A DNA stretch of 64,000 nt from Thermoplasmata archaeon (GCA_046484045.1 JAWOBZ010000080.1:28630-92629), one strand, 5' to 3'. Counted from the first letter of the stretch, positions 33,923 to 64,000 are shown. A program made the numbers and translations. The notes: a model not told the origin generated them from the sequence alone.

Positions 33923-33934
33923 TGAGTATTACTA

Positions 33935-34832: not shown

Positions 34833-35054
34833 AGTGAACGAAGTGAGCTAGGTCCGTGGAAGGAGGAATCTGTGATTCCTGTGCACCACGGGGAATTTGC
34901 TCTGCAAATTTCCCGAGTTGGTTAGAAGCTCTGCTTCTGACAAACTACGGGGCTTTTTTCTTACTCTCTATTCAGGGCTCTCCGATATCGTAACCCCTTA
35001 AAAATATTATTGGTGCTTATAGCTCGAAAACCAGATTTATATATCCGGAAGTAA

Positions 35055-35270: not shown

Positions 35271-35298
35271 TCTTTTTCTTCGAGTGGGTGAAACGTTC

Positions 35299-47561: not shown

Positions 47562-48932
47562 TCATACTAAGATATCTTCTAACTGGTGAAGTATGATATC
47601 ATCTCTTCCTTCGGATCTATCAATAAGTTTCTTTTCATATCCTGATCTTGAGAATAGACCAAATGTCTCTTCACGACTATCATTTCTCCATCTGACCTGA
47701 GCGGCTTTCCTTTCTAGCTTTTTCAACACTCCGATGTCGACCTTATCTTTACTCCATTTACATTCTCCCAAAAAGATCTGGTTGTCTTTTTCATCGAGCG
47801 CAACTATGTCTATCTCGTTTTCTTCGTGCCACCACCGACCAATTTTATTATATTCATATTTGCGTTTTACGGCTTTCAGACATACATCCTCAAATATCCT
47901 ACCCATATAATGACTGTAATCTTCTTTTACAGTATCTATCACTCCATCTGGGTTTACCTCGATCTGGCTCATATTAGGATAAACAAAGGTGATCCAGAAA
48001 CGGAAATAATTATCCTTTAATTTGTATAGGAAATTTCTCTGTTTTGGCTTTTCAGTTACTGGATATTCCTTATAGATTATATCCAATCTGTCCAAGGAGT
48101 TTAGATACTTATTGATATTTGTGATGGATATTTTACTTTTAGAAGATATCTCTGAAAGTTTGGTAGCACCGTCTATTATGGATTTGATGATGTTAAAATA
48201 AGTATTGGGCTTTCTTAATTCCTCTCTAAGCAATATCTCCGCTTCCTCGTAGAGTATATTCAATTTATTCAGGAAGGTGCCCTGGATATTATCGTAGAAA
48301 CCTTTCTTCGGGTCGAATTCTTTTAGATAGAAAGGTACGGCTCCAATCGCACCGTAAGTTTTTATCAAATCTTCCTGTGAATAATCTGGTAGGAATTCAC
48401 TTAGTTTCATTATGGGTATCTCGTCTACCTTGAGCTGCCCAGTTCGACGTCCATACAGTGGACTGCTGTAATCGAGCACCTCCTTTTCCATCATACCTAT
48501 GGAAGAACCGGTTAATACGAGGAAGATGTTTTCTTCACTCAGCACCTCATCCCAGATGTACTGCATCTCGGACAATATCTCTTTGTTCTCCTCGATCCAA
48601 TAGGGAAACTCGTCGATGATGAAGACGAATTTTTCTTGCGTGGATATCTTGTCGACCATGTTTATGAACAGCTCAGAGAGGGAGTTGGTTTCTGGAAGGT
48701 AAATATCGTGTTCTTTCGCAAGTTCATTCCTTAATCTCTCGACTTCAAGAGAAAAATCCTGTTTCCTAGAGAGAAAGTAAAAATTTGGTTTATCCTTTGA
48801 AAACTCCTTGGCTAGGGTGGTCTTACCGATCCTCCTCCTTCCATAGATGATAAAAAAATCAGAGCCTTCGCTTTCGTACCTCTCTTCGAGTCCGTCGAGC
48901 TCGTACTCCCGATCTATGAATTGTAGTATCAT
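47562..48932 (-). CDS. Archaeal AAA+ ATPase (Arch_ATPase + DUF234)
   Basis: FIDREYELDGL...YGRRRIGKTTL (Walker A) and Walker B IIDEFPY are present. Length is 456 aa. Confidence 0.75.
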   Translation of the reverse strand: MILQFIDREYELDGLEERYESEGSDFFIIYGRRRIGKTTLAKEFSKDKPNFYFLSRKQDFSLEVERLRNELAKEHDIYLPETNSLSELFINMVDKISTQEKFVFIIDEFPYWIEENKEILSEMQYIWDEVLSEENIFLVLTGSSIGMMEKEVLDYSSPLYGRRTGQLKVDEIPIMKLSEFLPDYSQEDLIKTYGAIGAVPFYLKEFDPKKGFYDNIQGTFLNKLNILYEEAEILLREELRKPNTYFNIIKSIIDGATKLSEISSKSKISITNINKYLNSLDRLDIIYKEYPVTEKPKQRNFLYKLKDNYFRFWITFVYPNMSQIEVNPDGVIDTVKEDYSHYMGRIFEDVCLKAVKRKYEYNKIGRWWHEENEIDIVALDEKDNQIFLGECKWSKDKVDIGVLKKLERKAAQVRWRNDSREETFGLFSRSGYEKKLIDRSEGRDDIILHQLEDILV

Positions 48933-49180: not shown

Positions 49181-50062
49181 ATGCTCGACTACTTGATGTC
49201 CAAGATAGTTTGGATAATCGCCGCAGTGGTGCTCACCGCCTCAGTCATCGGAGTCTACAACTGGCAGAGGCATTCCATGGAAGAGGTGGAGCTCGAAGAG
49301 AGGGCGAAGGGTATCTCGGAGATGGTGAACCGGATCTGCACTACGGACGGAGAGATCAAGCTGTTAGCGTCCAGCAACGAGAGCAGGGATCCAGATATCT
49401 ACTTGGAACCGTCGATAAACGGTCGGGTATATCAGCTGCAGTTCACACCCTCCGGTTTCTACTTAAAACAGGGTGACAAGATCATCTGGAGGGACTTCGT
49501 GGAGAACGTCCACATGATGAACCCTGCGTTGATAGGCGAAAACGATTACTCCCTGGTGAGCCAAGTCGACAGCATCGACCACGACCTGTCGATCTCGTCG
49601 GGTGAAAACTTCTACATCATGTCCAAGGGGTACAACGGGGTCTACGAAGTCTTCATCTACTCGGAAGATTCGGAAGGGGTCGTGGCTGAGACGAAAACGG
49701 TGGGCAGCGTCATAGCGGATTTCTTCCAAGTTAGGCCGTCCAAAGGTAATCTTAGCTACAACAAAACTGCCAACGACACCTTCAAGGGCGATATTACATT
49801 TCAAACGGACTGCCTTTTCCTCAACAACAATACGGAACTGCCGTGTCCCATACCGAAGGTACATCTGTGGAACGTGAGCTCTGAAAATATATCTGATATC
49901 AATATCACCCAGATGGACGAAGAGCACAGTAGATTACAAGTCCATAAGAACGAAAAGGTCCATCTGAAAAGACAGTTGTTATACATCGATGGAAATTTTA
50001 CAGCACATAGATTCATCTACACGGATCAAGCTTCTGTGATCTCTCCGGCGACCAGGTGGTAG
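49181..50062 (+). CDS. Hypothetical N-terminally membrane-anchored protein
   Basis: The N-terminal hydrophobic helix KIVWIIAAVVLTASVIGVY is followed by a ~270-aa extracytoplasmic region with N-glycosylation sequons. Its 3' end overlaps the giant gene by 37 nt. Confidence 0.45.
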   Translation: MLDYLMSKIVWIIAAVVLTASVIGVYNWQRHSMEEVELEERAKGISEMVNRICTTDGEIKLLASSNESRDPDIYLEPSINGRVYQLQFTPSGFYLKQGDKIIWRDFVENVHMMNPALIGENDYSLVSQVDSIDHDLSISSGENFYIMSKGYNGVYEVFIYSEDSEGVVAETKTVGSVIADFFQVRPSKGNLSYNKTANDTFKGDITFQTDCLFLNNNTELPCPIPKVHLWNVSSENISDINITQMDEEHSRLQVHKNEKVHLKRQLLYIDGNFTAHRFIYTDQASVISPATRW

Positions 50063-53000
50063 TCCGGACCCTTGACTCCGAATTCCACCTTGGACCTACC
50101 CATGTCTTTGCCTATCAAGGACGCTATCGCCGGGACGTTGGCTGAGAAGAAACCGGTGTATTTACCCTTGCCTACTTCCACTCCAAGATACGTGTCGTCC
50201 AGTATCTCCATGGGAAATTCATTCGTTGAACAGGAGGGTTTTTTATCGACTATACTCATGATCAAGTTCTTGATAGCGGTAGCTATCCAGGTGACGAAAG
50301 ATGCGATGGATTCACCACCTGTCAAAGCGAAAGTGAGTGTCACTTGGACTTCGTTCACGGTGGCTTGGAAGAAGAGCACCAGTTCCTGCACCACTTCCTT
50401 TATGAACTCGATGACCTCTTCGATGAACTTCATAACCATGGTTTTGACGAAGTTGATGATGTAGTCCAAACTGAATTTTGTTTTGCCCATCTTATCAGCG
50501 GTGTCTCTGAACGCACTGTTCACCAATCCCACTAGAATATCCCCGAAGCTCTCGTTGACATCTAAGTAAACTATCTGAAAACCAAGGTCCACATCGCTCA
50601 CAACAACGGGACCGATGGGGAACCTCGCTTCGTTTATACCTGTGTATTCTCCCAGGGTCACTTCGGTTTCGTTTTTCGGTGTTTTTCTCTTTGGGATGGT
50701 CAGGTTGACGTAGGTGCCGTCCCCCTCCTTTCCATGCAGACCCTGGCACTGGAACCATGCGGGGTATATGCTCGGTGACTCGTGGAACGGGTCCGCCAAC
50801 GGGTCCACCTGCCAATCGATATCAGTCTTTCCCACCCGTATCTTGCCGAAAGCGATCACGTCGCTCTCGAGAACGTTGAGGTTCAATCTGTAAGAAGTTC
50901 CGAACAGCTCACCGCCCAGGCTTATGTTGACGTACCTCGTCACGTTGTTTTCATACTTTGGAATCGAGGTCTCGTATCCGTCCGCGGTGACGTTCACCAT
51001 ACTGGACAGCCCGGTTATGGACAGGATCTTGTCCAAACACTTCAGTTTACCCTTGTCTTTCAGCTTGTCCAGTAAACTTTTGGCCTTGGGTCTTAAAAGG
51101 TCATTGATCGTGCTGTTGATAACGTCACCCAGCTTCTGGACCAACTTGGTGGCGTACTCTTTCAGTTTGTCCACCAGTTTATCGAATAACTCCATGATCT
51201 TTTCGATACCGTCTATGAGGTACGAAAGTGGCTTCTTGATGTACTTCCAGACTTTGTTCAAAAAGTTCATCGCATCAGAAAAAACGTCGTCGGAGAGCTT
51301 GTACTTGACTCCCGCCAACTTCCAGCCTGAATAAACCGTCAGCTCCAAAGAGAAAGAGATGTTCTCGGTGTGGTTCATCCAGACGTACCTGGGTTCACCG
51401 TCCTCTATGAGCGTAGGATCGGCCCTGCTGACGTTGTAATCCACCTCTATCGGGTCTATCTGTATCTTCCAATCCGTGCTGAACGGTCTGCTGGATATCT
51501 TGTTTACTTTCGTGTAGTGGACCCCTTTGGGCTTGCTTATATCGATCCTGTTGTCCAGTGAGATATAATCCGGCGTACAGTCGAATCTGAGCTTGAGCTC
51601 CCGCTCCCCTTCACCGTGTGAGAAACCAGCGGTTGTATCCACGGGTAAACGGTACTCCAGGTTGCTCATCTGACCTCCCATTATCATCTGGGTAGTCGTC
51701 GTTTTTAAAAACGATGACGCAAGCTCGAAAAGGGAATCGGTCATACTGCCTCCCCCTATTATCGACCATACCTTTCTCTGAAACAGGTTGCCCTGGATGT
51801 GCTCACCGTTCTTACTGGTCTTGAACTCGACGTGTTCTGCCTTCTTCAGTGAATTACCGTATAGGTCTTCCACGTCCGTGATGTTGAACCAGTAGCGCTG
51901 GTCGGACTCGAATTCACCATGGTGTAGGGTGATCATGGTCCCGTCTGCGTTCATATCGTACTCCCAAGACCCATCGTATGGATGGCACGTGAACTCCAGA
52001 CTGCTCTCTTTTATGGGCTCACTGAAAACGATGTGAAGTGGTATATCGGAGAGATACCGCTCGTTACCGTCCTCTGGACAAACGGCGATAACCTCCGGCC
52101 TGGTTGATTCCTTGATCTTGAACACGAATGGATTCGATATCCCCTCTGATATCCTCAGGTCGCTGCCGTTCTCGTCCTCTCCCTTTATGAACACCTTGTA
52201 TTTTACGCCGATTTCGAACGTTTCATGCGATATGACGACTTCGTCATCACCCACCCACGCGAAAGAGATGTTGGTTGTGTGGGGCTGTACGGACAGGTTG
52301 AAAGTGGTTTTGTTGATGGGTTTGCTGAACCTCACCCTTATGTTCTCGTTCTTGGAGATGTTCTCCGAACCGTTTACTGGGTAAGTGTAGGTGATCTCTG
52401 GAAGGTCTATCGACTTGGTCCTGTAATCCGCTGAGAAGAGAGTAGTACCGGTCCCTTCAGCTGTGACCGCGGCGCCGTCGTATCTGCTCTGCAGAGCGGA
52501 CAGATCGAACTCCAGGTCGATGTCGGCGCCGGGCGGGAAGGGTTCATGGTCCAGAACGAGTCGTTTACCGTTCTTTTCGAAACTATACTGCCAGGTGAGG
52601 TTGGAATCGATGAGATCTTGGATGCCGGTTGAAAATTCCACCCTCTCGTCGAAGGTCATGATTATCGAGCTCTCGACAGTTATCTCGCTGCCCGAGGACG
52701 GGTAGATACCGGTGACCTGTGGATACATCATGGTGGTCCAGGTGATGTCCTGGGGCTGCATCAAAGATGAATTCGTCCCGTTGTCCACGTCCTTAACACC
52801 ATCTATGGTCAGCTCGTATTCAGTGTAACGGAAGTAGAATTCAGATGGTGTCAATACCGCCCGGGTATCGTTATCATGCCAATTGACCGTGAAATCGACG
52901 TTTGGTGAGATAGAGTATGCCAAAGATTTCGTGTCCACTTTCTCGCTGAAGGTGACGGTGATCTCCTGGTCGGTGTTCCAGCTGTTGTTGCTGCTGGGTA

Positions 53001-55956
53001 AGATGTCCAGCACCCTCGGTCTGTTATCGACGAGCACCTGCACCGTGGTGTTATCGTGTCCCCCGCAGTCGTCCCAAACATCCAGAGTTACGTTGTAGGT
53101 ATCGGGTGTCATGAAAGTGTGGTTCACGTTCTTTCCCGTCTCATTTGTCCCGTCACCGAAGGTCCAGATACTTTGGATAACGCTGCCGTCGGGGTCGGTG
53201 CTGTCGCTATGAAAAGCCATCATCTCTGTTTCGGATGCAGGTGATGGTGAAACGCTCCCTATCTCTGCTTTCGGTGGTAGATTTACGAATATCTCTACAC
53301 TGTCCGAGTGAGTGAATCCGTCTTCGTCCACGACCTCGAATGTGATGACGTGCGTGCCGGGTGAGAGAAAACCGGCCGACATGTTGAAGTCCTCTTTGTT
53401 GGATAGATGACCGTCGATGTTCGATATCCACGATACCATGGAGGCGTTCACCCCGGTGAGATCGCCTTGGAATGATATCACGTGCTGTCCCCTGGTGGCT
53501 GGGTCCGGTGTGATATCCTCGATGTAGACCGTGCTTCGACTCCTGGTTTCAGTTCTTTTATGAGCTTGATAGTTCTTCACGGACGTGTTATACTGGTAGG
53601 AATCCAGTGCTTGGATGATCAGACCGTCGGAATCCGAGTGCTGGCTGTCTTCGTTCACCTCGCTGATCTCCCGGTCCCTTATATCATCGAATGCGGCCTC
53701 GACCTCTGGTTTTAGCTCCTTTTGGAGATCTTCTATTTTGGGACCTGAGAGTGTGCCTCCCTTCTGCAAGATATCGGCTATCTGCTGTTTATCTAACTCG
53801 CCGTCTCTTTTCCAGACGTAGTCGCACTCCGTGTTCGCCTTTCCTACCTTCACTTCAGAACTAGTTACGTCGTACTCCAGGTATGGATTAGTGTGACAAG
53901 ACAATTCTTCGGCGGTCCTTTGAGCCGTTGAATCAATCACATCCTTCTTTTGTGACAGAGAACCGTATTTTTTCTTTAAAAATTTCTTTAGGTCGTTGAT
54001 GCGTGGATCTCCCTCTTCATCGTGGAGAACGTCCAAGACGGCATCGACGATCTTCCCCGGATTATCCTGGTAGTAATCCATGGTTTCATCGATGGAGCTG
54101 GAGACCGCATCGTTGAGTTCTTTGAACAGCGATCTTCTATCGTAGGGATCGAGTTCCAACTTGGTGTATTTAGTCAATATCTCCTCCAATCCCGGGTCCT
54201 CCAGTACCGATTCGATGAACTTGGAGATCACCTCTTTTACCGCACCCCTGATGTTCTCCGCTTTCTTCTTGCTCTCCTTTTTGTAGTGGTCGTCGTAGAA
54301 CTCCTGCCAGTGCTTGTCGTTGTCCTCCAAGAGGTCTCTAGGGGTGAACATCAACTTTCCTTCGTCGATGGTGACTTTGACCTCTTTCTCTATGAAATCG
54401 TATCCGTAGAGCACTTCTGCGCCTCCACAGCGGCCGTAAACCGGTTCTCCGTCATCCTCACCCTTGACAACGGACTCGTTGCACGTGTGTCCGTGTTCCC
54501 TGTGAACCGTGCCGTGACCGCAGTCGTACGTGTACCATCTGTGCTCCGGGGATTTCAGCCTGATCCTGATCTTTAGGGTGTATACCTCTTTGAAATTCGG
54601 CGGTAGATTCGGGTATCCAGATATCGTTTTTCCGTTCATCTCGTCGTACACGTAATAATTCGATTTGAGCGTGTTGGTGTTCATAAGACCGGCGGAGATG
54701 AAATTCTTGGCCACCCAGTTCTTGACGGTTTCCACCTGTTCCGGATTAATTTCATCCTCCTCCCCAGATAAGAAATGAGAGAATATGTCCTCCGACCCCT
54801 CTTTCATGTCTTCGTAGATGTCGACGAGCGCCTGATATGCCTTGAACCCAATGTTTGCCACCTCCATATAGTGGAAGTAATCTAGGTACTTGAAAACGAA
54901 CTGATCCGACAGTGCGTTTATAGCTTGGGAGATCACCGCCGTTAAGTTGATGTCAGTCGAGTCCTCGCGCTCTACGATCTCTCCATCGTATCCGTAACCG
55001 TAGTACAGAGATACGATATCACCAGGATCGATACGGCCTCTCTGGATGTATTCGTCCACCAGTTCCCGTATAGTGCATGCGGCTTTGGTGGTTCGATTGG
55101 ATATCTCTCGGACGGATCCATCGTCGAAGGTCCTGTACTGGTAAGCTGTCTCTAAAAGGAAGGCCATGTTAACAGCCAGCTCGACGTCTTTCTTCGTGAT
55201 TATCTCGCTTGTGGCTTTGCAGGACGAGTTATCGATGTTCTCGTACTTTCTCATCCCGTAGCCCATCAACGTCCTGTACTGCGCTAGAGTGGTGATGATG
55301 TAGTCCGTGATCCTGGCCACGTGGCTTTGTTCTCCGGAGAGCTGTGAGTTAAAGGATGAGCACTTCTTTTTCAGGAACGGATACGGCACGTCCACGTCGA
55401 TGGTGAAATCTTTTTCTTTGTCCATGGAGAGGCCTTTGGGATTCTTAACTCTTAGAGAGATCGACCCCTCAACCTTGTACGCGTAGGTCTCGTTGTTCTT
55501 GTCTAACTCACCCGGTTGGTCGTTGGATACCCTGTCGTATCCTCCCCTGTCCTGGACCGTTTTGTTTATGGAGTCCGTCTCTTCGAATTTGATGTCCATG
55601 GAGAGGCTGTGGTTCAATATCTTTACAATGGCTCCCGGGACTTTTTTTTCCTCGTACTCATCCATAAAGTCTTCCGTCCGATTCTGGAATACTGTTGAAA
55701 CTGACATGTCCTTCCTGTTGGCTTTGTATGCACTCCTGACGGCCAATAGTTTGATCCTGGACTTCAGTGCATCGAGTTCGTTGTCCGCTCTCTCCTCGAG
55801 CTCGGATATCTCGTCGGCCCTGAGCTCGTTCTCGTAGCTGATCATCTGTATCCTAGATAGGTAAGCTACCGCTAGAACCGACAGTAATACAATTAGCACT
55901 CCTAAAAGGGCGAAGGATACGGTACCAACGTCTTTTCGGTCACTTCTAAAGATCAT
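50026..55956 (-). CDS. Giant (1976 aa) cell-surface protein with PKD and Ig-like domains and an N-terminal TM/pilin-like anchor
   Basis: The N-terminus is RKDVGTVSFALLGVLIVLLSVLAVAYL. The PKD signature is WTFGDGTNETGKNVNHTF...DDCGG. Repeated beta-sandwich-like segments are rich in N-x-S/T sequons. Confidence 0.7.
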   Translation of the reverse strand: MIFRSDRKDVGTVSFALLGVLIVLLSVLAVAYLSRIQMISYENELRADEISELEERADNELDALKSRIKLLAVRSAYKANRKDMSVSTVFQNRTEDFMDEYEEKKVPGAIVKILNHSLSMDIKFEETDSINKTVQDRGGYDRVSNDQPGELDKNNETYAYKVEGSISLRVKNPKGLSMDKEKDFTIDVDVPYPFLKKKCSSFNSQLSGEQSHVARITDYIITTLAQYRTLMGYGMRKYENIDNSSCKATSEIITKKDVELAVNMAFLLETAYQYRTFDDGSVREISNRTTKAACTIRELVDEYIQRGRIDPGDIVSLYYGYGYDGEIVEREDSTDINLTAVISQAINALSDQFVFKYLDYFHYMEVANIGFKAYQALVDIYEDMKEGSEDIFSHFLSGEEDEINPEQVETVKNWVAKNFISAGLMNTNTLKSNYYVYDEMNGKTISGYPNLPPNFKEVYTLKIRIRLKSPEHRWYTYDCGHGTVHREHGHTCNESVVKGEDDGEPVYGRCGGAEVLYGYDFIEKEVKVTIDEGKLMFTPRDLLEDNDKHWQEFYDDHYKKESKKKAENIRGAVKEVISKFIESVLEDPGLEEILTKYTKLELDPYDRRSLFKELNDAVSSSIDETMDYYQDNPGKIVDAVLDVLHDEEGDPRINDLKKFLKKKYGSLSQKKDVIDSTAQRTAEELSCHTNPYLEYDVTSSEVKVGKANTECDYVWKRDGELDKQQIADILQKGGTLSGPKIEDLQKELKPEVEAAFDDIRDREISEVNEDSQHSDSDGLIIQALDSYQYNTSVKNYQAHKRTETRSRSTVYIEDITPDPATRGQHVISFQGDLTGVNASMVSWISNIDGHLSNKEDFNMSAGFLSPGTHVITFEVVDEDGFTHSDSVEIFVNLPPKAEIGSVSPSPASETEMMAFHSDSTDPDGSVIQSIWTFGDGTNETGKNVNHTFMTPDTYNVTLDVWDDCGGHDNTTVQVLVDNRPRVLDILPSSNNSWNTDQEITVTFSEKVDTKSLAYSISPNVDFTVNWHDNDTRAVLTPSEFYFRYTEYELTIDGVKDVDNGTNSSLMQPQDITWTTMMYPQVTGIYPSSGSEITVESSIIMTFDERVEFSTGIQDLIDSNLTWQYSFEKNGKRLVLDHEPFPPGADIDLEFDLSALQSRYDGAAVTAEGTGTTLFSADYRTKSIDLPEITYTYPVNGSENISKNENIRVRFSKPINKTTFNLSVQPHTTNISFAWVGDDEVVISHETFEIGVKYKVFIKGEDENGSDLRISEGISNPFVFKIKESTRPEVIAVCPEDGNERYLSDIPLHIVFSEPIKESSLEFTCHPYDGSWEYDMNADGTMITLHHGEFESDQRYWFNITDVEDLYGNSLKKAEHVEFKTSKNGEHIQGNLFQRKVWSIIGGGSMTDSLFELASSFLKTTTTQMIMGGQMSNLEYRLPVDTTAGFSHGEGERELKLRFDCTPDYISLDNRIDISKPKGVHYTKVNKISSRPFSTDWKIQIDPIEVDYNVSRADPTLIEDGEPRYVWMNHTENISFSLELTVYSGWKLAGVKYKLSDDVFSDAMNFLNKVWKYIKKPLSYLIDGIEKIMELFDKLVDKLKEYATKLVQKLGDVINSTINDLLRPKAKSLLDKLKDKGKLKCLDKILSITGLSSMVNVTADGYETSIPKYENNVTRYVNISLGGELFGTSYRLNLNVLESDVIAFGKIRVGKTDIDWQVDPLADPFHESPSIYPAWFQCQGLHGKEGDGTYVNLTIPKRKTPKNETEVTLGEYTGINEARFPIGPVVVSDVDLGFQIVYLDVNESFGDILVGLVNSAFRDTADKMGKTKFSLDYIINFVKTMVMKFIEEVIEFIKEVVQELVLFFQATVNEVQVTLTFALTGGESIASFVTWIATAIKNLIMSIVDKKPSCSTNEFPMEILDDTYLGVEVGKGKYTGFFSANVPAIASLIGKDMGRSKVEFGVKGPDYHLVAGEITEA

Positions 55957-56017
55957 TCTCCAAGGAGTCCGAATTACGAATGGTATAAACTTTTTTCGAC
56001 CGTCCTGTTCTCTCGAT

Positions 56018-56224
56018 CTATTCGAGTTCGAATTTACTCTCTAGCTTCCTTTTGTTGATAATATCCTTAAAATCGGTGGTTTCGAACTCGGGGAATTCCT
56101 CGAACTCCTGTACATACATCTTCTTTGCCAGCTCTCTGATAACGGGGTTATCGCTGAAGGCAATAGCCAGCTTCAATTTGTTCCTGGTCAGGCATCTATC
56201 CTCTTCGCTCATATGTCCCACCAC
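56018..56224 (-). CDS. Small hypothetical protein
   Basis: 68-aa ORF. Coding potential only. Confidence 0.3.
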   Translation of the reverse strand: MVGHMSEEDRCLTRNKLKLAIAFSDNPVIRELAKKMYVQEFEEFPEFETTDFKDIINKRKLESKFELE

Positions 56225-56357
56225 CTGTCAGTCGTATGACAAGTGCATCCATAATAGATATTGATTAAGTTATATTTATAATTTTATTATATTATATATT
56301 GGACTACGTAGTGAGATAGAAAAATTCGGATGAAGTGGCGGTTAGTCCTCAGCGGAG

Positions 56358-56531
56358 TCAGTAGAAGGCCTTTTCAACTTCCATCTGTATGTCTTCGTAG
56401 ATGGTCTCCATCAAGTACTCCAGGTCATCGCCTTCGAACTCGAAATACCTTCCCATGGCACTCTGCACTTTGGCCCTGTATCCACTACCGTTTTCGACTA
56501 TTTCGATTGAACAGACTGCTTCTTCCACCAT
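56358..56531 (-). CDS. UPF0150/HicB-like small protein (below the ORF-track cut-off)
   Basis: Hand translation gives MVEEAVCSIEIVENGSGYRAKVQSAMGRYFEFEGDDLEYLMETIYEDIQMEVEKAFY. This fits the hhIE..EDGGYxAxV...G pattern of HicB-type antitoxin N-domains. Confidence 0.4.
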   Translation of the reverse strand: MVEEAVCSIEIVENGSGYRAKVQSAMGRYFEFEGDDLEYLMETIYEDIQMEVEKAFY

Positions 56532-56671
56532 TAATTAGGCGCACCCGGGTGTGGTATAAATATTTTTGGTTTGGATAAAACGATATATATGGGAAAATCC
56601 ATAGGGTATGCAAGTGATGACAAACCCCTAGCTGAGCGATAAGCTGTGATGAAGATTTTGAGTTCTGAAAA

Positions 56672-56896
56672 TCAGGGTTCTATGGTCTCGTATTCGTCGA
56701 TGGAATAAGGCTGCAGCACCAGGAGTGCGAATCCCATCCAACCGATGACAAAGATGGATAGAAATATATTGTCGATCCAGAACATGTGGTTGATAATAAC
56801 GACTAGGACCGGGATGATCACCGATATCAGCATGTAGAACAATATCTTCAAGTCAGATCTCTGTTCTGCCATCGGAGAATGAAATATAGGGGTCAA
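56672..56896 (-). CDS. Small hypothetical membrane protein (2 TM)
   Basis: 74-aa product with two hydrophobic helices. Confidence 0.3.
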   Translation of the reverse strand: MTPIFHSPMAEQRSDLKILFYMLISVIIPVLVVIINHMFWIDNIFLSIFVIGWMGFALLVLQPYSIDEYETIEP

Positions 56897-56913
56897 TAAA
56901 AACTTTTTGGGAG

Positions 56914-57213
56914 TTATTTTCTTGCCGTGAGTATCAGTCTTTTGGCGTTTTCGTCGTATGGAGAGCCGTGGAGGTCGCCGTAAGCCTGGATGCCTACGAA
57001 GCCTGCTTTTTCAAGCATCTCTTCGAGCTCGTGTGCGGAATACAGCCTGTGGTCTATGGCGAATTCGTTGACTTCTCCTTGATCTATGGTTATCCATCGG
57101 TTGGACATGCGGCTCCAGTCGTCGGTGACGCTTCTCTCTTCAAGGTAGTATACACCGTCTTTCTGGTACCAGTCCCTCTTCTGGAAGATCCTGGCGATGA
57201 TCTCTTTTCCCAT
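56914..57213 (-). pseudogene. C-terminal fragment of a class I SAM-dependent methyltransferase (truncated)
   Basis: The 99-aa ORF ends ...RLYSAHELEEMLEKAGFVGIQAYGDLHGSPYDENAKRLILTARK, typical of the last strands of a Rossmann MTase. There is no upstream room for the SAM-binding motifs, because the next gene ends at 57262. Confidence 0.45.
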
Positions 57214-57261
57214 AATAATGCTGATGGTTTCATACCTTTAGGATGTCGATATCCGGGTCCG

Positions 57262-57906
57262 TCATCCACATCCCTCTTCGTAAAAAAACGGGAACATGTC
57301 TTTCCTCAGTTTCGCCATCCTCCCGTCGGGGTGGGTGAACACTACGCCCTCTACGTAGCCCTTCTCTTTTGCTGTGTCGTACTTCATGTTGTGTGTTTTA
57401 GCGTAGAACAACGGAATGAGATCTTCCTTGAACCATTTGGAGATGGATTCGTAGGTCTTGGGGTATTTACCCCATGAGTGGTAAACGAGTTTTTCTCGAC
57501 TGTAGGTCGAGAACGGGATCCACAACCGCTGGTCTAGGTCGTATTTATTTTCCCTCCATTTAGGACTGGGGCCCACCAGTTCACCGAAATGCTGCCCGTC
57601 TTCTAGGTCATCCATGTATCCCTTGGAGTAGGAGTTGATCAGTCCTTTCATTATGAACGCCCCCTGCTTGCTGAAGAACGGGATCCTGTTCATCCTGTTC
57701 CAAACCTCGACGATCTCTCCATCTTCGATAATTATCGATACGTTGGTGCCGTCGAGCTTTTCGACCGCCATGACGGAGTCGTCCTGGAAGACCCATTCGT
57801 AGCCTTCGTTTATCTCGTCGATGACGACATAGTTGTCGTTCTCGTCATGTTCCCGGACAAATGGGCTGTGGAGCTTCGGCATGTTCTGAGCTTTGTACTC
57901 GGTCAT
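57262..57906 (-). CDS. Minimal ATP-dependent RNA/DNA-ligase-like nucleotidyltransferase (Rnl2/Rnl5-like)
   Basis: Motif I VEKLDGTNVSI (KxDG), motif IV-like EGVVFTHPDG and motif V AKLRK. Length is 214 aa and there is no OB domain. Confidence 0.55.
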   Translation of the reverse strand: MTEYKAQNMPKLHSPFVREHDENDNYVVIDEINEGYEWVFQDDSVMAVEKLDGTNVSIIIEDGEIVEVWNRMNRIPFFSKQGAFIMKGLINSYSKGYMDDLEDGQHFGELVGPSPKWRENKYDLDQRLWIPFSTYSREKLVYHSWGKYPKTYESISKWFKEDLIPLFYAKTHNMKYDTAKEKGYVEGVVFTHPDGRMAKLRKDMFPFFYEEGCG

Positions 57907-58053
57907 CTGTTATCACCGTAGTTTTTGTATTATAGAGCTGATTTTTAAGGCTTTTCGAGGGGGGCGGGTGAATGTGGGGGTTGGGTGAGATTGGGGGTAA
58001 GAGGTATAGTTGATGGGGGTAAAATTCTTGATAAAGTGGGTTATCTATAATCA

Positions 58054-59007
58054 TTATCGAGGCAAGTTCGTTAAACCTTCAAAAGACTCTACATAAACCT
58101 CGTGTATCTTTTCTGCGGCATTTTCTATCTGCACCATCTCTTTATCCGGCAGAGAGATCGCATCTCCTATCATTTTCCCTACGACCCTAGGGGTGCTCAC
58201 CATGACTTCTTCCTTAATATTCAAACCCTGGTATGGTGCTGCCACGGGGAGTATCTTATTTTCATTTAAAGCAATAGAACGTAGTATATCTCTAAAGGAA
58301 ACTGCCGGCCCCATCCTTGTTCCTCCACTGGTCTTGATAATTTGTCGGGATATCTCCTTTACATGCTCTTGGATTTGTTCTATATCCAAGGATCCGTTCG
58401 TTTCTCTCAGATATCGTTCCAAAGGCATCCCGTGTATTTCAACGGTCGACCACAGGAACACGGCGTCCTTTCCGTGCTCTCCGCCTACGAAACCTTTTAT
58501 GGATGTTATGGGGACGTCGAGTCTTTTTGAGAGCTCCGCTCTGAAGCGAAGGCTTTCAAGGTTCGTACCCGTGCTGATCACCCAGTCTGCGTTGGATAGT
58601 TTCTTAAAGAGGGTCGCCATGGCGTCCACCGGGTTGGTAACCACGACATAGTACGCATCTGGGTTCGTGGGACCTACGGCTTCCGCGATGTCTTTTATTA
58701 TCCTGGCGTTGGCTTCTGTTAGATCCGTTCTATCCTTCATGTCCTTGGTCCTCGGTGCACCGGCCGTTATCAGGACTATATCCGCTCCTTCTACTGAATC
58801 ATCTTCATCGTATGATACAACATCAATGTCGTTTTCTGTGCTTCCTAGAGAGTGTCTCACCTCTTCTGCTATCGATCCCGCGAGTTCAGGCTTCGTATCC
58901 ACTAAGGTCAATCTGTCTATCCATCTCTCGTGTGCCAGCAGGAGAAGGGTGGCCCTACCGACTCGACCCGTTCCGACGACCGCCACGTGTTTTCCAGAGT
59001 CGATCAT
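58054..59007 (-). CDS. mdh: Malate / L-lactate dehydrogenase (LDH/MDH family)
   Basis: The N-terminus HVAVVGTGRVGRAT is a Rossmann NAD-binding region. The ITAGAPR region and a catalytic H-containing region are present. Confidence 0.85.
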   Translation of the reverse strand: MIDSGKHVAVVGTGRVGRATLLLLAHERWIDRLTLVDTKPELAGSIAEEVRHSLGSTENDIDVVSYDEDDSVEGADIVLITAGAPRTKDMKDRTDLTEANARIIKDIAEAVGPTNPDAYYVVVTNPVDAMATLFKKLSNADWVISTGTNLESLRFRAELSKRLDVPITSIKGFVGGEHGKDAVFLWSTVEIHGMPLERYLRETNGSLDIEQIQEHVKEISRQIIKTSGGTRMGPAVSFRDILRSIALNENKILPVAAPYQGLNIKEEVMVSTPRVVGKMIGDAISLPDKEMVQIENAAEKIHEVYVESFEGLTNLPR

Positions 59008-59046
59008 GAGTTGACAAAAGATATTCTCGTATAAGTTGATTTGGTC

Positions 59047-59418
59047 TTAAGCTAATCTGTCTGCGCCCTGGTAGACTTCTTTTACGGTGAGTACTGCGGC
59101 TGCATGGCCCGGGAACCTGGGTTCCAACCATCCCCTCATCTCCTCGTAGACCTCTCCTTCCGTGTGGTAGGAGATGGTCCCTTTGATCTGGAAGGATTCG
59201 TGGTCGTCGGTGATGAACAGTATCGAGCCGTGGCTTCCGTTCTCTATGTTCGTTCTTGTTTTATCGAAGTAGTTGTCGGCGATGACGAACTGCTCTTCGT
59301 TCCGTTTTTTGATGCAGCTCACGTAGATCGCATTGGGTTCTCCGTTCCTGTTGACTGTTGCGAATACTGCTGGCCCTTCTCTTTTTTCCCATCTAACTTC
59401 TTCTGGTAAGGCTGTCAT
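59047..59418 (-). CDS. Pyridoxamine 5'-phosphate oxidase-like FMN-binding split-barrel protein
   Basis: AVFATVNRNGEPNAIYVS...FVIADNYFDKTRTNI is typical of the PNPOx-like family. The internal start at 59418 is used. Confidence 0.6.
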   Translation of the reverse strand: MTALPEEVRWEKREGPAVFATVNRNGEPNAIYVSCIKKRNEEQFVIADNYFDKTRTNIENGSHGSILFITDDHESFQIKGTISYHTEGEVYEEMRGWLEPRFPGHAAAVLTVKEVYQGADRLA

Positions 59419-59518
59419 ATGTGATCTCTCCTTTGGGTTGGGAAGATGTGGTTGGTTTATAAAATTATGTTGGGGGGTACTGGGGGAAATTTTATATGTT
59501 ACGTATATCATCTAATAC

Positions 59519-60340
59519 GTGATTATCGTGAATAAAAGTATAAATCTCGGTCCATTGGAATCAAAACTCCTATTCGAGTTGGAAAAGAGAGGTAAGTTTT
59601 TGTTTGATTTCAAGGATTCAAAAGACATATTGGATACTTCAGATTCATCCGTAGCCAATGTTCTGTATAGGTTGAGGGAAAAGGATAGAGTTCAAGAGAT
59701 ACAGAAGGGGAAGTACGTATTGAATCCAGCTAGATCAGGTTTGGAGGGTGAATGGATGGAAAACTTATATCTCATAATCGATCACATAGTGGATGATTAT
59801 TACGTCGGTTTCTGGTCAGCCATGAGTTACTGGGACCTGACTGAACAGATCCCCGTTGTGACCCAGGTTGCTTTAACTAAAAGGAAGAGGCGAGTAGAAT
59901 ATCTAGGTCAGGAAATCAAGTTCATCAAGATATCTGGAAAACGGTTTTTTGGAGATGTGAAAAAGGATGTTGAAGATGGAAGTTTCTATATATCTTCATT
60001 AGAGAAAACCGTTGTGGATGGTCTGACGTATCCGCAGTATTGTGGAGGGTTGTATGAAGTTTCCAAGGCGTTGTGGAACTCCCGAGAGATCATCGATTGT
60101 GAGAAAGTCTTTAGATTCCTAAATAGGTTGGATATGAGTGCGGTTACCAGGAGGATGGGGTATCTTTTGGATGTGCTCGATATCAAAAAAGATTTGAAGG
60201 ATAAATTAAGAGATGAATATAGTGGTTTCAGATGGTTGGATCCCTCTTCTTCCAAACCGGACTTTATTTATAATAAGGAGTGGGGTCTTAAATTGAATAT
60301 ATCTGATAAAGAAATGTTGGGTTGGAGAGTGCTACGTTGA
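59519..60340 (+). CDS. abiEi: AbiEi-family antitoxin / transcriptional regulator (type IV TA)
   Basis: An N-terminal wHTH (VANVLYRLREKDRVQEIQKGKYVLNP) plus a C-terminal AbiEi-like domain. Its 3' end overlaps the abiEii start by 19 nt. Confidence 0.7.
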   Translation: MIIVNKSINLGPLESKLLFELEKRGKFLFDFKDSKDILDTSDSSVANVLYRLREKDRVQEIQKGKYVLNPARSGLEGEWMENLYLIIDHIVDDYYVGFWSAMSYWDLTEQIPVVTQVALTKRKRRVEYLGQEIKFIKISGKRFFGDVKKDVEDGSFYISSLEKTVVDGLTYPQYCGGLYEVSKALWNSREIIDCEKVFRFLNRLDMSAVTRRMGYLLDVLDIKKDLKDKLRDEYSGFRWLDPSSSKPDFIYNKEWGLKLNISDKEMLGWRVLR

Positions 60341-61092
60341 AGATGGATGAACTGAAGAGATTATCTGGAAGAAAGAAAATCCCCCAAGGGATCATCTATA
60401 AGGATTACGTGATAACAGTGATCCTAGAGGATATATCTAGGAAGGATTATAAGGAGGATTTGATCTTCAAAGGAGGTACCTGTCTAAAAAAGATATATTT
60501 TGATGAAACGAGATTTTCTGTAGATATAGATTTCACCTGCACTCGTCAGAAGGTTTCCGACGAACTACTTACTGACCTCAAAGGGGATATAGAGGATAAA
60601 ACGGTCAGAGGTGTATCCTTCGGAGGTATAAAAGAGGATCGTGGTTGGGCAGATAGTGTCAGTTTCAAATTAGGATATTACGATCTAAATGAACATCCCA
60701 ACAGTGTTAAGATAGACCTGAGTTTTAGAGAGCAGCCGATCTTAAAGCCTGAAATTAAGCACGTGTTGATTCCAGATTACGGGAGGATCGATAAGTTCGA
60801 AATGTATGTTTTCCCTCTAAAAGAGATTCTATCAGAAAAAATTCGCGCTCTTATTACAAGGGGAGCTGCGAGGGATGTCTTTGATGTGTGGTTTCTTTTG
60901 AAAAATGGTGTGGAATTGGATATTAGCTTGGTTGAGGAGAAGATGGATTTATATGATGAAGAATTCGACATGGAGGAATTTATTGATAAGATCGGTGAGA
61001 TGGAGAGTAAGTGGAAACGTGACCTGGGGATGCTCGTGCCGGAGGCACCAGGATTCGAAACTGTTAAGGAAGAGATACGTTCGATCCTTTAG
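60322..61092 (+). CDS. abiEii: AbiEii/AbiGii-family nucleotidyltransferase toxin (DUF1814)
   Basis: DLIFKGGTCLKKIYFDETRFSVDIDFT is the hallmark of the family. Confidence 0.8.
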   Translation: MESATLKMDELKRLSGRKKIPQGIIYKDYVITVILEDISRKDYKEDLIFKGGTCLKKIYFDETRFSVDIDFTCTRQKVSDELLTDLKGDIEDKTVRGVSFGGIKEDRGWADSVSFKLGYYDLNEHPNSVKIDLSFREQPILKPEIKHVLIPDYGRIDKFEMYVFPLKEILSEKIRALITRGAARDVFDVWFLLKNGVELDISLVEEKMDLYDEEFDMEEFIDKIGEMESKWKRDLGMLVPEAPGFETVKEEIRSIL

Positions 61093-61185
61093 TTCATGTA
61101 TTATGTTATATTGTGAAATAAATCATTTAAATTTCAAATTCGAAACAGAGTTCGAAATGAAGGGGGGGCGTGTGAGGAAATTGAT

Positions 61186-61626
61186 TTATTTATCATCTAA
61201 CCTTTTTTCCAACGCATCGATTAGTATCTCTATGATCCTTTCGATATCATCTAGGTTTCTGAAAAGGTAATCTTGAGCGATATCCCTTCCCCTGTATATG
61301 ATATCGCTTCTGAGTAATCTTAAGTCGTCTATAAGATGGGTATATTGATATTCTATAAGATCTGGTTCTATGTCGTTAATATATGAGATCAAACATTCAT
61401 GACTGTAACTTTTGTATCCATCTAATGCTAATAATGCGGTCAATAGTTCCTTGATAGCTTCATAATACGATTCCAACAAAAGTTGAGGATATTCGTCTTC
61501 TTTCCTTTTCTCTATGGATTTCATCCTACGTTTTGCCAGGATTAAAAGAGATCTAGCCTGCTCTGGATTCTCTTGAATCTCCTTCACTTTCTTCTTTTCC
61601 TTACAATCTTCCCAATCTTTCATCAT
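61186..61626 (-). CDS. HEPN-like protein, putative partner of the upstream MNT
   Basis: The 146-aa helical protein overlaps the MNT stop by 4 nt. An R-x4-[HY] motif candidate is LRSDIIYRG. No canonical H is seen. Confidence 0.45.
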   Translation of the reverse strand: MMKDWEDCKEKKKVKEIQENPEQARSLLILAKRRMKSIEKRKEDEYPQLLLESYYEAIKELLTALLALDGYKSYSHECLISYINDIEPDLIEYQYTHLIDDLRLLRSDIIYRGRDIAQDYLFRNLDDIERIIEILIDALEKRLDDK

Positions 61627-62147
61627 ATCACTTTTAGGAAACCGTGTAGAACGATCCCGTTAGCCAACGAGTTTCTTAACTCTTCGTTCACGTTGTCGAT
61701 GTCAGGTTCGTATAAAAGGTTTATTTTCCTGTTCAGTTTTTCTTCGTATTCGTTTAAGTTCAAGTTTGTCTTCTTTGATTGGATGAACAAGTCTATATCT
61801 CCGTTGGTGTCGTCTCTTCCAGAGGCAGCACTACCGAATAGAACTAAACAGTTCGGTGTAGATTGATTTTTTATTAAATCTATCAGTCCAGATGTTTTTA
61901 AACGTATTAGTAGATCGTTGACCTTGTAGGTTCTAAATTTATCGTTTATTACAGCACGGTATCCTTTGTAGAGTCCATCTTCATTCGATTCGATAAGGTC
62001 CTCTTCGATCAGCTTCAGTAGATGACTCTTTACCGATGGGTGGCTGATGTTCACTTCTCTTGAGATCTCCCTAAGATGCCATATCTTGTTCGGCTCGTCG
62101 AAGAAAACCTGTAGGACTTTGTATAGATTTGATGATCGGTATATCAT
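61623..62147 (-). CDS. Minimal nucleotidyltransferase (MNT) with an N-terminal wHTH
   Basis: LVLFGSAASGRDDTNGDIDLFI matches GSx9-13DxD of the Pol-beta NTase fold. A palindrome at 62151-62181 upstream may be an operator. Confidence 0.75.
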   Translation of the reverse strand: MIYRSSNLYKVLQVFFDEPNKIWHLREISREVNISHPSVKSHLLKLIEEDLIESNEDGLYKGYRAVINDKFRTYKVNDLLIRLKTSGLIDLIKNQSTPNCLVLFGSAASGRDDTNGDIDLFIQSKKTNLNLNEYEEKLNRKINLLYEPDIDNVNEELRNSLANGIVLHGFLKVI

Positions 62148-62347
62148 ATTACCACCTGGTATAATATTTTACCAAGTGGTATTAATAGTTACCGGTTTGA
62201 GATACTAAACGTGAACTTTGTGGAGTGGCGTGTTTATCGAAACAGAGTGCGAAATGAAGGAGGGAGACAAACACTTTTCCAAAATCTGTGATGATATTTT
62301 TTTGAGTGTGATTTTGAGTTGTCTTAAGTTTTTAGTATTTACTCTGA

Positions 62348-62842
62348 TCACTTTTCATCCAATTCAGTACGCACTTTTTCGTACAGTTCATCGCTGATCC
62401 AAAAACCTGAATCCCTTAAAGTATCCAAGTGTTCTATTGGATCCTTCAATTTATTCAATTTTGCAGCCTTTAAAAGTAGGCCTATAACTCCGGTTATTTG
62501 CAGATCATGATTTCTAGCCAGTTCCCTAGCATCGTACTCATCTAACAAGATGATATCTGCAGATTCCTGAATAGCTAAAACAATTGCCTCTGATTCACCT
62601 TCATCTACATCTTTAAAGAATGCTGTTTTTAGATGTATATTCTCTCTTTTTATTTGTTTTACATATATCCATTCAGCATTTTCTATGTCCCTTGAATCCT
62701 TTCTATCTCCACCCTCTACAACGCATTCTTCGTAGACCGCTTCAGGGATGAGTACTTCATCGAATAGTTCATTTAAGATCTCTAGAAGCCCTATCTTCGA
62801 TAGGTGAATCAATGGAGAAGAATTACTGACCGCGATTGGCAA
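62348..62842 (-). CDS. DUF3368 PIN-like nuclease domain protein
   Basis: The N-terminus VSNSSPLIHLSKIGLLEIL and the acidic ILLDEYDARE motif are typical of DUF3368. The upstream UPF0175 gene overlaps it by 20 nt. Confidence 0.65.
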   Translation of the reverse strand: MPIAVSNSSPLIHLSKIGLLEILNELFDEVLIPEAVYEECVVEGGDRKDSRDIENAEWIYVKQIKRENIHLKTAFFKDVDEGESEAIVLAIQESADIILLDEYDARELARNHDLQITGVIGLLLKAAKLNKLKDPIEHLDTLRDSGFWISDELYEKVRTELDEK

Positions 62843-63077
62843 ATTCGATGTCCTCCTTCAATTCCCTCTCATCATAGTGTCTTTCTATCTTCCTTTTTTT
62901 AAGTTCATCTATAAATTCCCATTTCCCCATCTCTGCCAACTTCCTCGCTTTACCGAGAGATATTATTCCCCTTTGGTAAAGAGCTAAAGCTAGTTCTAGT
63001 TTTAGCATCTTTTGCCTATCTTTCTTGGGGAGTTTGATAGCATTCAATATCTCTTCGCCTATCGATATAGATTCCAT
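62823..63077 (-). CDS. UPF0175-family small protein (antitoxin-like partner of DUF3368)
   Basis: LELALALYQRGIISLGKARKLAEMGKWEFIDEL matches the UPF0175 pattern. Confidence 0.65.
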   Translation of the reverse strand: MESISIGEEILNAIKLPKKDRQKMLKLELALALYQRGIISLGKARKLAEMGKWEFIDELKKRKIERHYDERELKEDIEFANRGQ

Positions 63078-63401
63078 TTTATCCTGTTTTAAATAGAGTA
63101 GTGAATAGATTTAAAACTTTTCATCTTTGAAAATTTTTGCATAGTGCGAAATGAAGGAGGGGGCGTATGGATAAAATAGTAAATTTTATACATGCGTGAG
63201 GAACAGGGTTCCTAACAGTGTGAAATAAGAAAAAAAGTGAACCGGTAAAATAGGGTTGTCTTTCACAATTTTATTCGTGCAATAGATACTTTGTAATCTT
63301 CCCCTTTCCTTCGTGATATTGTTTGTATTGAAATATCTAGATAAGAGCTCCGGTATGCTGTTAATTCTGTTGAAATCCATATAAACAGTATTCCGTTCTC
63401 A

Positions 63402-64000
63402 CTACCCTTCACTTTTTTTTATTATACCGTGACCGGCTTTGCCGTCCACCTTAACGAGCAGAGGTGATGAAAGACGTAGGTGCCTCACGTACCGTTCCTT
63501 GTTCTCAGCGGGCATATCATCCATCCAAGTCCAATCAACGAAATCCTCCTTCGATTTGTTAGCAATTGTAAGGTAAGGGATCCCAAGAGATGTAATGTTG
63601 TGAAAGAAATGAGAGCCCTGTGAAGGGTCCACCCGTATGTCCATGATCGGAGTTTCCACTATGGCCCTTACTCCGGCCATGTGGCCCCAATTGACCGGAA
63701 TACCAAGCCATTTGTCGTTGCTGCCCCATCGGCCCGGACCGATGAGTAGATAGGGCCTCCCGTTCACCTTTTCGTTCATCTCACCGATCTCTTTGGCGAT
63801 GTTAACGGTTTGACTTCGATCAAAGGTTTTGGGTGGCACATAGACGATGTCATATATATCGTTAAATTTTCCGTTACCAAGGGCTTTAGAGGAATAAATA
63901 AGGCACCCCTCTCGTTCGTTATCTTCAATAACAACATGATTGTGCTCTTTCATAGAGAGAAATGGTCTTATCTGCAGTATGTAAAACACCAGATCACCAT
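63402..64000 (-). CDS. Hypothetical protein, C-terminal portion (5' end beyond the window)
   Basis: The long ORF runs to the window edge. Conserved-looking segments such as LLIGPGRWGSNDKWLGIPVNWGHMAG are present, but no family is assigned. Confidence 0.4.
   Translation of the reverse strand, partial: GDLVFYILQIRPFLSMKEHNHVVIEDNEREGCLIYSSKALGNGKFNDIYDIVYVPPKTFDRSQTVNIAKEIGEMNEKVNGRPYLLIGPGRWGSNDKWLGIPVNWGHMAGVRAIVETPIMDIRVDPSQGSHFFHNITSLGIPYLTIANKSKEDFVDWTWMDDMPAENKERYVRHLRLSSPLLVKVDGKAGHGIIKKSEG

Follow-up and report, generated by a model that had tools for sequence, protein, structure and literature searches.

Direct repeats with mosaic arms at the junctions of two toxin-antitoxin cassettes downstream of abiEii in a Thermoplasmata archaeon: a lead to nested insertion at one short site

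Introduction

Few archaeal genes are as mobile as those of toxin-antitoxin (TA) and small defence modules, and to our knowledge the movement of two-gene units that have no mobility gene of their own is largely unexplained. A stretch of 64,000 nt from a Thermoplasmata archaeon (GCA_046484045.1 JAWOBZ010000080.1:28630-92629) was analysed, in which three copies of a short direct repeat bound two TA cassettes downstream of an abiEi/abiEii pair. The whole stretch is called the window, and positions are counted from its first letter. Several kinds of described system come close to this locus. Archaeal integrated elements mostly have their attachment (att) sites at the 3' ends of tRNA or protein genes. 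Tycheposon arrays in Prochlorococcus reportedly form by tandem integration at one att site, carried out by tyrosine recombinases. The pdif modules of Acinetobacter plasmids are often TA pairs, with sites of ~28 bp that alternate in orientation and a chromosomal recombinase that acts in trans; dif-type sites in general are 11-6-11 imperfect palindromes.

Integrons explain cassettes with canonical attC sites, and integrons in archaeal metagenome-assembled genomes were reported only recently. Those archaeal integrons have canonical attC sites and were detected with bacterial models (Ghaly et al. 2022, PMC9668308). Most of them are integron arrays without an integrase (CALINs), defined as at least two attC sites less than 4 kb apart (PMC9668308). 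Restriction-modification (RM) gene units lack a mobility gene, and their insertion produces target duplications that are long and variable (Furuta et al. 2010, PMC2853133); no archaeal case passed the screen for such units (PMC2853133). An archaeal XerA/dif system has also been described (PMC2958812).

Each of these systems resembles the window locus in part. Integron arrays likewise consist of small, self-contained, integrase-less cassettes, often TA pairs, arranged head to tail with a site in one orientation at each junction. The window sites differ in that they are short (19-38 nt), unstructured and without R''/R' boxes, with no IntI/attI nearby. Whereas an integron attC travels with its cassette, homologous cassettes here carry different junction sequences in two genomes. 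The integron analogy fits the layout, not membership. RM units share with the locus an addiction-type unit without a mobility gene and variable direct repeats of tens of bp. Their repeats correspond to one copy in the uninterrupted site, whereas a target duplication here lacks an empty-site genome as proof. RM units also differ in being bacterial RM systems rather than archaeal TA pairs, and the double use of one site in two genomes implies a preference unreported for them. Tandem att integration also gives segments bounded by direct repeats with hybrid arms, and its cargo-only segments can be integrase-less; at least some members of such arrays do carry an integrase, whereas the window site is intergenic, bears no similarity to tRNA by eye and has no integrase in its 64 kb. 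Xer/dif modules are discrete, often TA, and moved by a recombinase in trans. Only one window copy nears the 11-6-11 register (8/11), and all window copies are direct, whereas pdif sites alternate. As a variant of the repeat-bounded insertion of selfish gene units, the arrangement is a well-defined lead.

Junction repeats and cassettes

The repeat search gave a family with three plus-strand copies (A, B and C), all within 2.1 kb. The copies and the units that they bound are as follows.

59519-61092, plus strand: abiEi (59519-60340) and abiEii (60322/60337-61092), convergent with the cassettes, with copy A just downstream
61140-61177, plus strand: copy A, the intact form, with left arm L1 TCGAAACAG, core AGTTCGAAATGAAGGGGGG and right arm R1 GCGTGTGAGG
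61178-62236, minus strand: cassette e1, HEPN toxin (61186-61626) and winged helix-turn-helix (wHTH)-MNT antitoxin (61623-62147), with a promoter/operator of its own, lying between A and B
62237-62264, plus strand: copy B, L1 and core (AGTGCGAAATGAAGGAGGG), then unrelated sequence
62265-63139, minus strand: cassette e2, DUF3368 PIN-like toxin (62348-62842) and UPF0175 antitoxin (62823-63077), with a TATA-box promoter of its own, between the identical cores of B and C
63140-63170, plus strand: copy C, unrelated left flank, core (22 nt in common with B, one mismatch) and R1-like GGCGTATGG

The core common to the three copies is AGTNCGAAATGAAGGRGGG, which occurs nowhere else in the 64 kb. The motif was not found in the remaining 61 kb of the window. 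The 15-nt core CGAAATGAAGGRGGG gave three perfect matches against 0.30 expected at up to two mismatches, a count that was reached in 0 of 100 shuffles. The 24-nt pattern of left arm plus core gave two matches against 0.00 expected, and shuffles did not reproduce them either.

Copy A lies between convergent genes, 48 nt past the abiEii stop and 9 nt ahead of the HEPN stop codon. From copy B the distance is 90 nt to the MNT ATG and 84 nt to the DUF3368 stop; from copy C it is 66 nt to the UPF0175 ATG and 232 nt to the stop of a PpsA-like gene. A and B have TCGAAACAGAGTNCGAAATGAAGGRGGG in common (28 nt, two differences) and are unrelated on either side of it. A and C are alike from CA.AGT through GGGGGCGT.TG, over ~30 columns. 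B and C have only 22 nt in common, CA(G/T)AGTGCGAAATGAAGGAGGG; their cores are identical, and the core of A differs from them at two positions. The arms of the three copies are thus mosaic: A is L1-core-R1, B is L1-core-R2 and C is L2-core-R1. When the left part of B was joined to the right part of C, an A-like 36-mer was rebuilt (36 columns, two mismatches, one indel). Direct repeats with arms mixed between partner sites, the hybrid arrangement looked for around an att-flanked integrated element, were therefore found. In gene (minus) strand order each repeat stands after the 3' end of a unit: PpsA-like gene-C, e2-B, e1-A.

The earlier note on this DNA, made from the sequence, had described five related sites at almost every module boundary. 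The sequences that it quoted stand where it placed them, and A, B and C are indeed related. The other two, at 57954-57985 and 59455-59485, are only G-runs. The former has just GGGGGGCGGGTGA in common with A (p about 0.05), and the latter, described as a weaker element, aligned locally no better than shuffles (p=0.4). A pattern for the right half, GGGGGCGTGTGA, was found five times at two mismatches against 3.1 expected, which is not above chance. The permuted ggcgtgt at 62226-62232 is a 7-mer with seven plus-strand occurrences (p=0.15), so that a decayed fourth copy to the left of B is not supported. The element is present at only three of at least eight boundaries.

Two further observations concern the surroundings of the motif. 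An exact 11-nt copy of its centre (AGTTCGAAATG) lies inside the abiEii coding sequence at 60793-60803, where ~0.03 would be expected by chance. To the right of copy C, at 63163-63214, two strong hairpins (GCGTATGGATAAAATAGTAAATTTTATACATGCGT and GGAACAGGGTTCC; z=-5.3) stand in the 232-nt tail of the PpsA-like gene and may be a terminator or another structured element.

Each interval between repeats is a minimal unit of promoter, antitoxin and toxin, with start-to-start spacings of 1097 and 897 nt. In e1 the two genes overlap by 4 nt; the antitoxin has a Polbeta match (1.6e-8) and an N-terminal wHTH, and the HEPN match of the toxin is marginal (2.3e-4, just under the cut-off). In e2 a VapBC-like pair was identified by UPF0175 (1.6e-25) and DUF3368 (5.1e-12) in Pfam and by PADLOC PDC-S70 (1.7e-43). 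The two cassettes belong to unrelated TA families, and the repeat is therefore not part of a duplicated gene. Neither interval holds an integrase, each having only its two TA genes. In the 64 kb, ~58 ORFs were scanned with Pfam profiles, and several of them matched nothing at all; no integrase, resolvase or transposase domain was found among them, in agreement with the earlier note, which had seen no integrase.

Two TACC-N4-GGTA palindromes (62149-62160 and 62170-62181) stand just upstream of the wHTH-MNT start codon, and a like arrangement lies upstream of a 58%-identical homologue (contig L035, 2077-2110). They probably form an autoregulatory operator on which the MNT-fused winged-helix domain acts. 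An inverted repeat with 12/13 matches, CGATTAGTATCTC / GAGATACTAAACG, was also seen, with one half inside HEPN (61218-61230) and the other upstream of the MNT promoter (62199-62211); its p value against shuffles was 0.003 before multiple-test correction.

A parallel locus and other relatives

An ENA contig (L047, GC 0.46) carries a UPF0175/DUF3368 cassette whose proteins are 85% and 72% identical in amino acid sequence to those of e2. The DNA is ~78% identical from the TATA box to ~50 nt past the stop, and the homology fades within ~50-60 nt after the stop. As homology ends near the TATA box and past the stop, the window repeats lie just outside the conserved unit. The L047 cassette directly follows a distant abiEi/abiEii pair (27-28% identity) and is flanked by the only direct-repeat family in that 4 kb, which occupies three sites.

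1513-1582: site X1, rep1 and rep2
2365-2407: site X2, rep1 only, 43 nt, 88%
2886-2917: site X3, rep2 only, 27/32

X2 and X3 are unrelated to each other, so that the same three-site mosaic as in the window is present with different sequences. These repeats were significant (0 of 1000 shuffles). The interval from X2 to X3 holds a MazE-like gene and a truncated PIN-like ORF. Copies of rep1 overlap the abiEii stop codon and that of DUF3368; because these are two unrelated genes, the overlap is read as duplication and not as a convergent regulatory signal. No match to the L047 repeats was found in viral contigs. The string AAACAGA(GT)NCGAAATGA is common to copies A and B of the window and to X1, and in both loci it stands at or beside the inferred crossover (p 0.004-0.008, significant only when restricted to the sites). 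We treat this sharing as a lead.

DUF3368 homologues at 65-75% identity were compared. Solitary homologous modules (contigs L035, L039 and L073), which served as controls, have no flanking repeats. The possibility that the motif is part of the HTH-MNT module was rejected, as its homologues in L035-L042 (53-58% identity) are solitary and have neither the motif nor flanking repeats. In L035 a 19-nt unit, TAATATATGGTCGGCACAA, is repeated three times in tandem at 1890-1946, ~160 nt upstream of a solitary HTH-MNT/HEPN module.

Another homologous cassette belongs to a 10-kb TA array (L044), the junctions of which have a different repeated element of ~270 nt, and the cassette homologue in L043 adjoins the same element. 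This non-coding element was located at L043 1059-1402 and L044 2-230, 2521-2868 and 4234-4516, and also in L045 and L046. It is conserved between two contigs of GC 0.46 and 0.33 and occurs three times in the L044 array, each time after a cassette. Short units, among them TTCGTACACGAnCnnCGTCAGGT and ATTACAATCnCCGTCnG, make up the element, and a terminal inverted repeat (TIR) of 11 nt is present in one copy. Its nhmmer E values were 1e-27 to 1e-63, it has no Rfam match, and the window lacks it. It may represent another kind of cassette-junction site. A resemblance noticed by eye at 63260-63330 of the window was rejected, as nhmmer found nothing there.

Exact-pattern searches with the 19-mer AGTNCGAAATGAAGGRGGG gave 12 matches in genome contigs and 18 in metagenome contigs, all of them single and with unrelated flanks. 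Three Methanolliviera-type matches lie inside the coding region of one oxidoreductase gene. A 17-mer gave 25 matches in viral contigs (IMG/VR), all single. The 19-mer matches elsewhere look like chance. Four Logan contigs (L001, L002, L015 and L034), from three sequencing runs, are 100% identical fragments of the window arrangement. Logan contigs end near repeats at 63222, 63181, 62250 and 57981; no inference is drawn from these ends, because the samples yield short contigs throughout.

Tests of known site types

The three copies were compared with the site types of the described systems. A regular-expression search of both strands of 55900-64000 gave no RYYYAAC...GTTRRRY pair 40-150 nt apart (eight pairs were found in the whole window). 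Single-stranded DNA folds of both strands gave no hairpin common to A, B and C, attC-like imperfect hairpins included. A weak stem of 6+4 bp (z about -2) was seen in copy A and none in B (z +0.7 and +1.1); in C strong stems stand beside the motif and not inside it, and the folds of A and C differ. The L047 sites likewise gave no fold (z -1.4 to +1.5). Both attC features tested, the R''/R' boxes and a conserved hairpin, were thus lacking. No Phage_integrase domain, as expected of an IntI, was found beside the array or elsewhere among the scanned ORFs of the 64 kb, and the gene beyond C is PpsA-like.

No TIR was found at the ends of e2 (p=0.55), and the repeat lengths are unequal (22 vs 36 nt). 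A DNA transposon or miniature inverted-repeat transposable element was rejected, there being no TIR, no target duplication of fixed length and no transposase in the scanned ORFs. In the 11-6-11 register of dif, read by eye, A (TCAAATTCGAA-ACAGAG-TTCGAAATGAA) scored 8/11, B scored 6/11 and C had no arm symmetry. A Xer/dif-type site was rejected because two 11-bp imperfect inverted arms with a 6-bp spacer are not present in all copies. With the RM-unit type, the comparison gave repeats of 36-38 nt for e1 and 22 nt for e2, no mobility gene, and no empty-locus genome among the retrieved relatives.

No known RNA was matched by the window motif in Rfam, even at E<=1, and blastn searches for a plasmid or virus origin gave no match in either collection. 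ORFs of 37, 47 and 7 codons start from the ATG of the core in the three copies and have nothing in common beyond four residues. The 47-codon ORF of copy B (62254-62397, plus strand) has a hydrophobic stretch, ILSVILSCLKFLVFTLITF, runs antisense to the 3' end of DUF3368 and has no Pfam match. A conserved small ORF starting from the motif ATG was rejected, as the copy B ORF is not conserved at A or C.

Interpretation and alternative explanations

On balance, and with no more than moderate confidence, A, B and C are read as junction repeats left by the successive insertion of two promoter-bearing TA cassettes at one short site downstream of abiEii. The repeats would be att-like direct repeats or target duplications. 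In an older step the HEPN/MNT cassette would have entered a site of ~36-38 bp, leaving A and a second copy, A'. In a younger step the UPF0175/DUF3368 cassette would have entered A' by way of the 19-22-bp common core, splitting it into B (left arm of A' and core) and C (core and right arm of A'). Mosaic arms of this kind would result if the B-C interval had come into an A-like site through an exchange in the core; with the B-C interval placed in A', the A-B interval would itself be flanked by two ~36-nt copies. The identity of the B and C cores and the divergence of A suggest two events of different age, the younger nested in the older. A circular or otherwise mobile intermediate may have been used. 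The inserting enzyme would have to act in trans, since no gene for it was detected in the cassettes or among the scanned ORFs of the 64 kb.

As reconstructed, both in the window and in L047 the later cassette landed within the repeat that the earlier one had created. Under random targeting, with targets of 36 and 70 nt in spacers of a few hundred nt, the joint chance of both nested landings is roughly estimated at below 1%. Nested landing in two genomes implies that the site seems to attract insertions, as a hot spot and not as a random target. The attraction could come either from sequence recognition by a trans-acting recombinase or from some property of the repeat. A broader proposal is that Thermoplasmata hold a cassette-capture system unrelated to integrons, in which a trans recombinase acting at a short linear core, CAGA(NN)NCGAAATGA, downstream of abiE stacks promoter-bearing TA or defence cassettes and regenerates a usable site at each junction. 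We consider this speculative and rather unlikely as it stands.

Several results weigh against successive insertion at one site. The evidence base is small: three copies, with two inferred events in the window and two more in L047. The mosaic is defined by short arms (~6 nt peculiar to L1, ~8-11 nt to R1), convincing dyad symmetry is lacking, and no recombinase was identified among the scanned ORFs. Over whole intergenic regions the similarity of window and L047 motifs was not significant (p 0.06-0.1). The flanking repeats of the homologous cassette differ in sequence between the two loci, and the orientation of AAACAGA..CGAAATGA is the same relative to abiE in both but opposite relative to the homologous cassette. 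Different repeats and opposite orientation in two genomes argue against a conserved cassette-borne att (attC-type) site. Exact-pattern scans of 596 Gb of genomes, JGI metagenomes and IMG/VR gave no other archaeal locus with the motif (the flanks of the viral matches were not inspected). No empty site, circular junction or presence/absence polymorphism was seen, only identical Logan fragments having been retrieved.

In another account, the cassettes inserted with long, variable target duplications of the RM-unit type and without true site specificity. In that case 20-70 bp would be duplicated, possibly in a host-repair-dependent manner, and the re-use of a site would be coincidence or would reflect the neutrality of the spacer. 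Repeat lengths do vary (22 and 36 nt here, ~5 and ~70 nt in L047), the homologous cassette has different repeats and orientation between genomes, and neither TIRs (p=0.55) nor a mobility gene in the scanned ORFs was found; there is also a bacterial precedent (PMC2853133). We nevertheless regard this account as unlikely, because in both genomes the second insertion lies inside the short repeat of the first, at the rough joint chance given above, and because both hot spots are just downstream of abiEii with AAACAGA..CGAAATGA in common at the junction. A still less probable explanation is a regulatory or transcript element, that is, an operator or upstream promoter element of the minus-strand TA operons or the start of plus-strand antisense RNAs or peptides. 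The shared promoter or operator that the earlier note gave as an alternative falls under this heading. The core does contain ATG AAG GRG and a Shine-Dalgarno-like AAGGAGG string, the MNT start codon is 90 nt downstream of B and that of UPF0175 66 nt downstream of C, on the plus strand A and C come after TATA-like ATTTAAA boxes, and the ATG of copy B opens a 47-aa hydrophobic ORF. Copy A, however, lies between two convergent stop codons with no downstream gene on either strand, and the spacing to promoters, TATA boxes and start codons is not constant (66 vs 90 nt to the starts). The ORFs of 37, 47 and 7 codons share only four residues, and neither an Rfam match at E<=1 nor a common fold was found. 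A functional motif also leaves unexplained why the left flank of A recurs only in B and the right flank only in C. The motif is absent from the PIN pair of the window at 33.5-34.4 kb and from homologous modules elsewhere, and in L047 the overlap of the repeats with the stop codons of two unrelated genes points to duplications.

The earlier note had compared the region with integron-like cassette arrays, and the layout invites the comparison: TA systems are the commonest annotated cassette class in archaeal and bacterial integrons (PMC9668308), and the repeats, all in one orientation, each come after the 3' end of a minus-strand unit. The locus might then be a canonical array of the CALIN type, with the motif as part of attC and IntI encoded elsewhere. 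This is very improbable given that neither strand of 55.9-64 kb has a RYYYAAC/GTTRRRY pair at a distance of 40-150 nt, that B does not fold and the folds of A and C differ (the L047 sites having z of -1.4 to +1.5), that the common sequence of 19-38 nt is linear and far shorter than attC, and that neither IntI nor a transposase was found among the scanned ORFs of the 64 kb. The more general idea of cassette junctions is partly supported: it holds for three sites and two cassettes, on the evidence of the mosaic arms, the minimal units in a low-GC islet and the topology of L047, and not for the other sites. Chance similarity, or a relic of an old local spacer duplication unlinked to the arrival of the modules, would suit an AT-rich region in which G-runs are common (37 runs of five or more G in the window, about the number expected from composition) and in which two of the five proposed sites are at chance level. 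It is likewise very improbable for A, B and C, as the shuffles did not give the observed matches, the copies lie exactly at module boundaries and the three-site mosaic recurs in L047 (0 of 1000 shuffles).

A nested repeat-bounded layout, found in two genomes that differ in their junction sequences, suggests a second route beside the integron. That route could be a site-preferring recombinase acting in trans or an archaeal counterpart of the long target duplication of RM units. As it stands the case is a lead and not a demonstrated system; its exact junctions make the question testable if they are confirmed.

Genomic setting and other observations

The chromosomal content of the window is ordinary for an archaeon. 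Genes for glutamine synthetase, proteasome alpha subunit, SBDS, exosome subunits, prefoldin, PGK, PolB, several aminoacyl-tRNA synthetases and RFC are present with three tRNAs, and two proteins have exact NCBI matches (MFO7992012.1 and MFO7992013.1, Thermoplasmata archaeon). The array stands in the following context.

59450-63400, no strand: low-GC islet with abiE, HEPN/MNT and UPF0175/DUF3368, GC 0.33-0.43 against 0.45-0.52 in the flanks
63402-64000 and past the window, minus strand: C-terminal part of a PpsA-like enzyme (phosphoenolpyruvate-utilising), the next gene after the array, not an integrase

The islet is flanked by housekeeping genes, with PNPOx/mdh on one side and the PpsA-like gene on the other. 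The closest homologues of the latter are at most 56% identical, and no relative was usable for an empty-site comparison. An accessory island covering 56000-63400 had been proposed; the islet at 59450-63400 is distinct, and the remainder is not compositionally so. There is no visible continuation past ~63400, where the island had been expected to extend beyond 64,000 and where the PpsA-like gene comes next.

Pfam and PADLOC domains in 56-64 kb were RNA_ligase, Ldh/Mdh, PNPOx, AbiEi/AbiEii, HEPN, wHTH-MNT and UPF0175/DUF3368. Most of the modules named before were recovered in this way, the HEPN gene marginally. The HicB-like gene (56358-56531) had no Pfam match, and the truncated methyltransferase (56914-57213) had only a sub-threshold match to Methyltransf_23 (E=0.02); neither call was upheld. 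The AbiE pair, of the type IV TA / abortive infection kind, consists of an adjoining AbiEi antitoxin and AbiEii nucleotidyltransferase toxin (Pfam AbiEi_1 4.7e-10 and AbiEii 1.2e-34; PADLOC AbiEi 3e-73 and AbiEii 3e-55).

At 57954-58020, in the spacer from the mdh stop to the RNA-ligase-like gene start, four runs of 5-6 G occur within 66 nt, making the tract quadruplex-prone. Two independent Logan contigs terminate inside it (at 57981 and 58021), which could reflect either a drop in coverage at G-rich DNA or a strain breakpoint. The RNA-ligase-like protein had no record in the Logan collection.

A second stretch of lower GC (0.41-0.42), at 32000-36000, holds tRNA-Arg, tRNA-Gln and two convergent PIN-domain genes (33539-33922, plus strand, and 33935-34387, minus strand). 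It may be another small accessory patch; the junction motif is absent from the PIN-protein locus at 33.5-34.4 kb. To the left of the region, on the minus strand, lie an archaeal ATPase_2/DUF234 protein (47562-48932), a PADLOC candidate for PDC-S27, and a 1976-aa protein with PKD and Big_5 domains (50026-55956), which is likely to be located at the cell surface.

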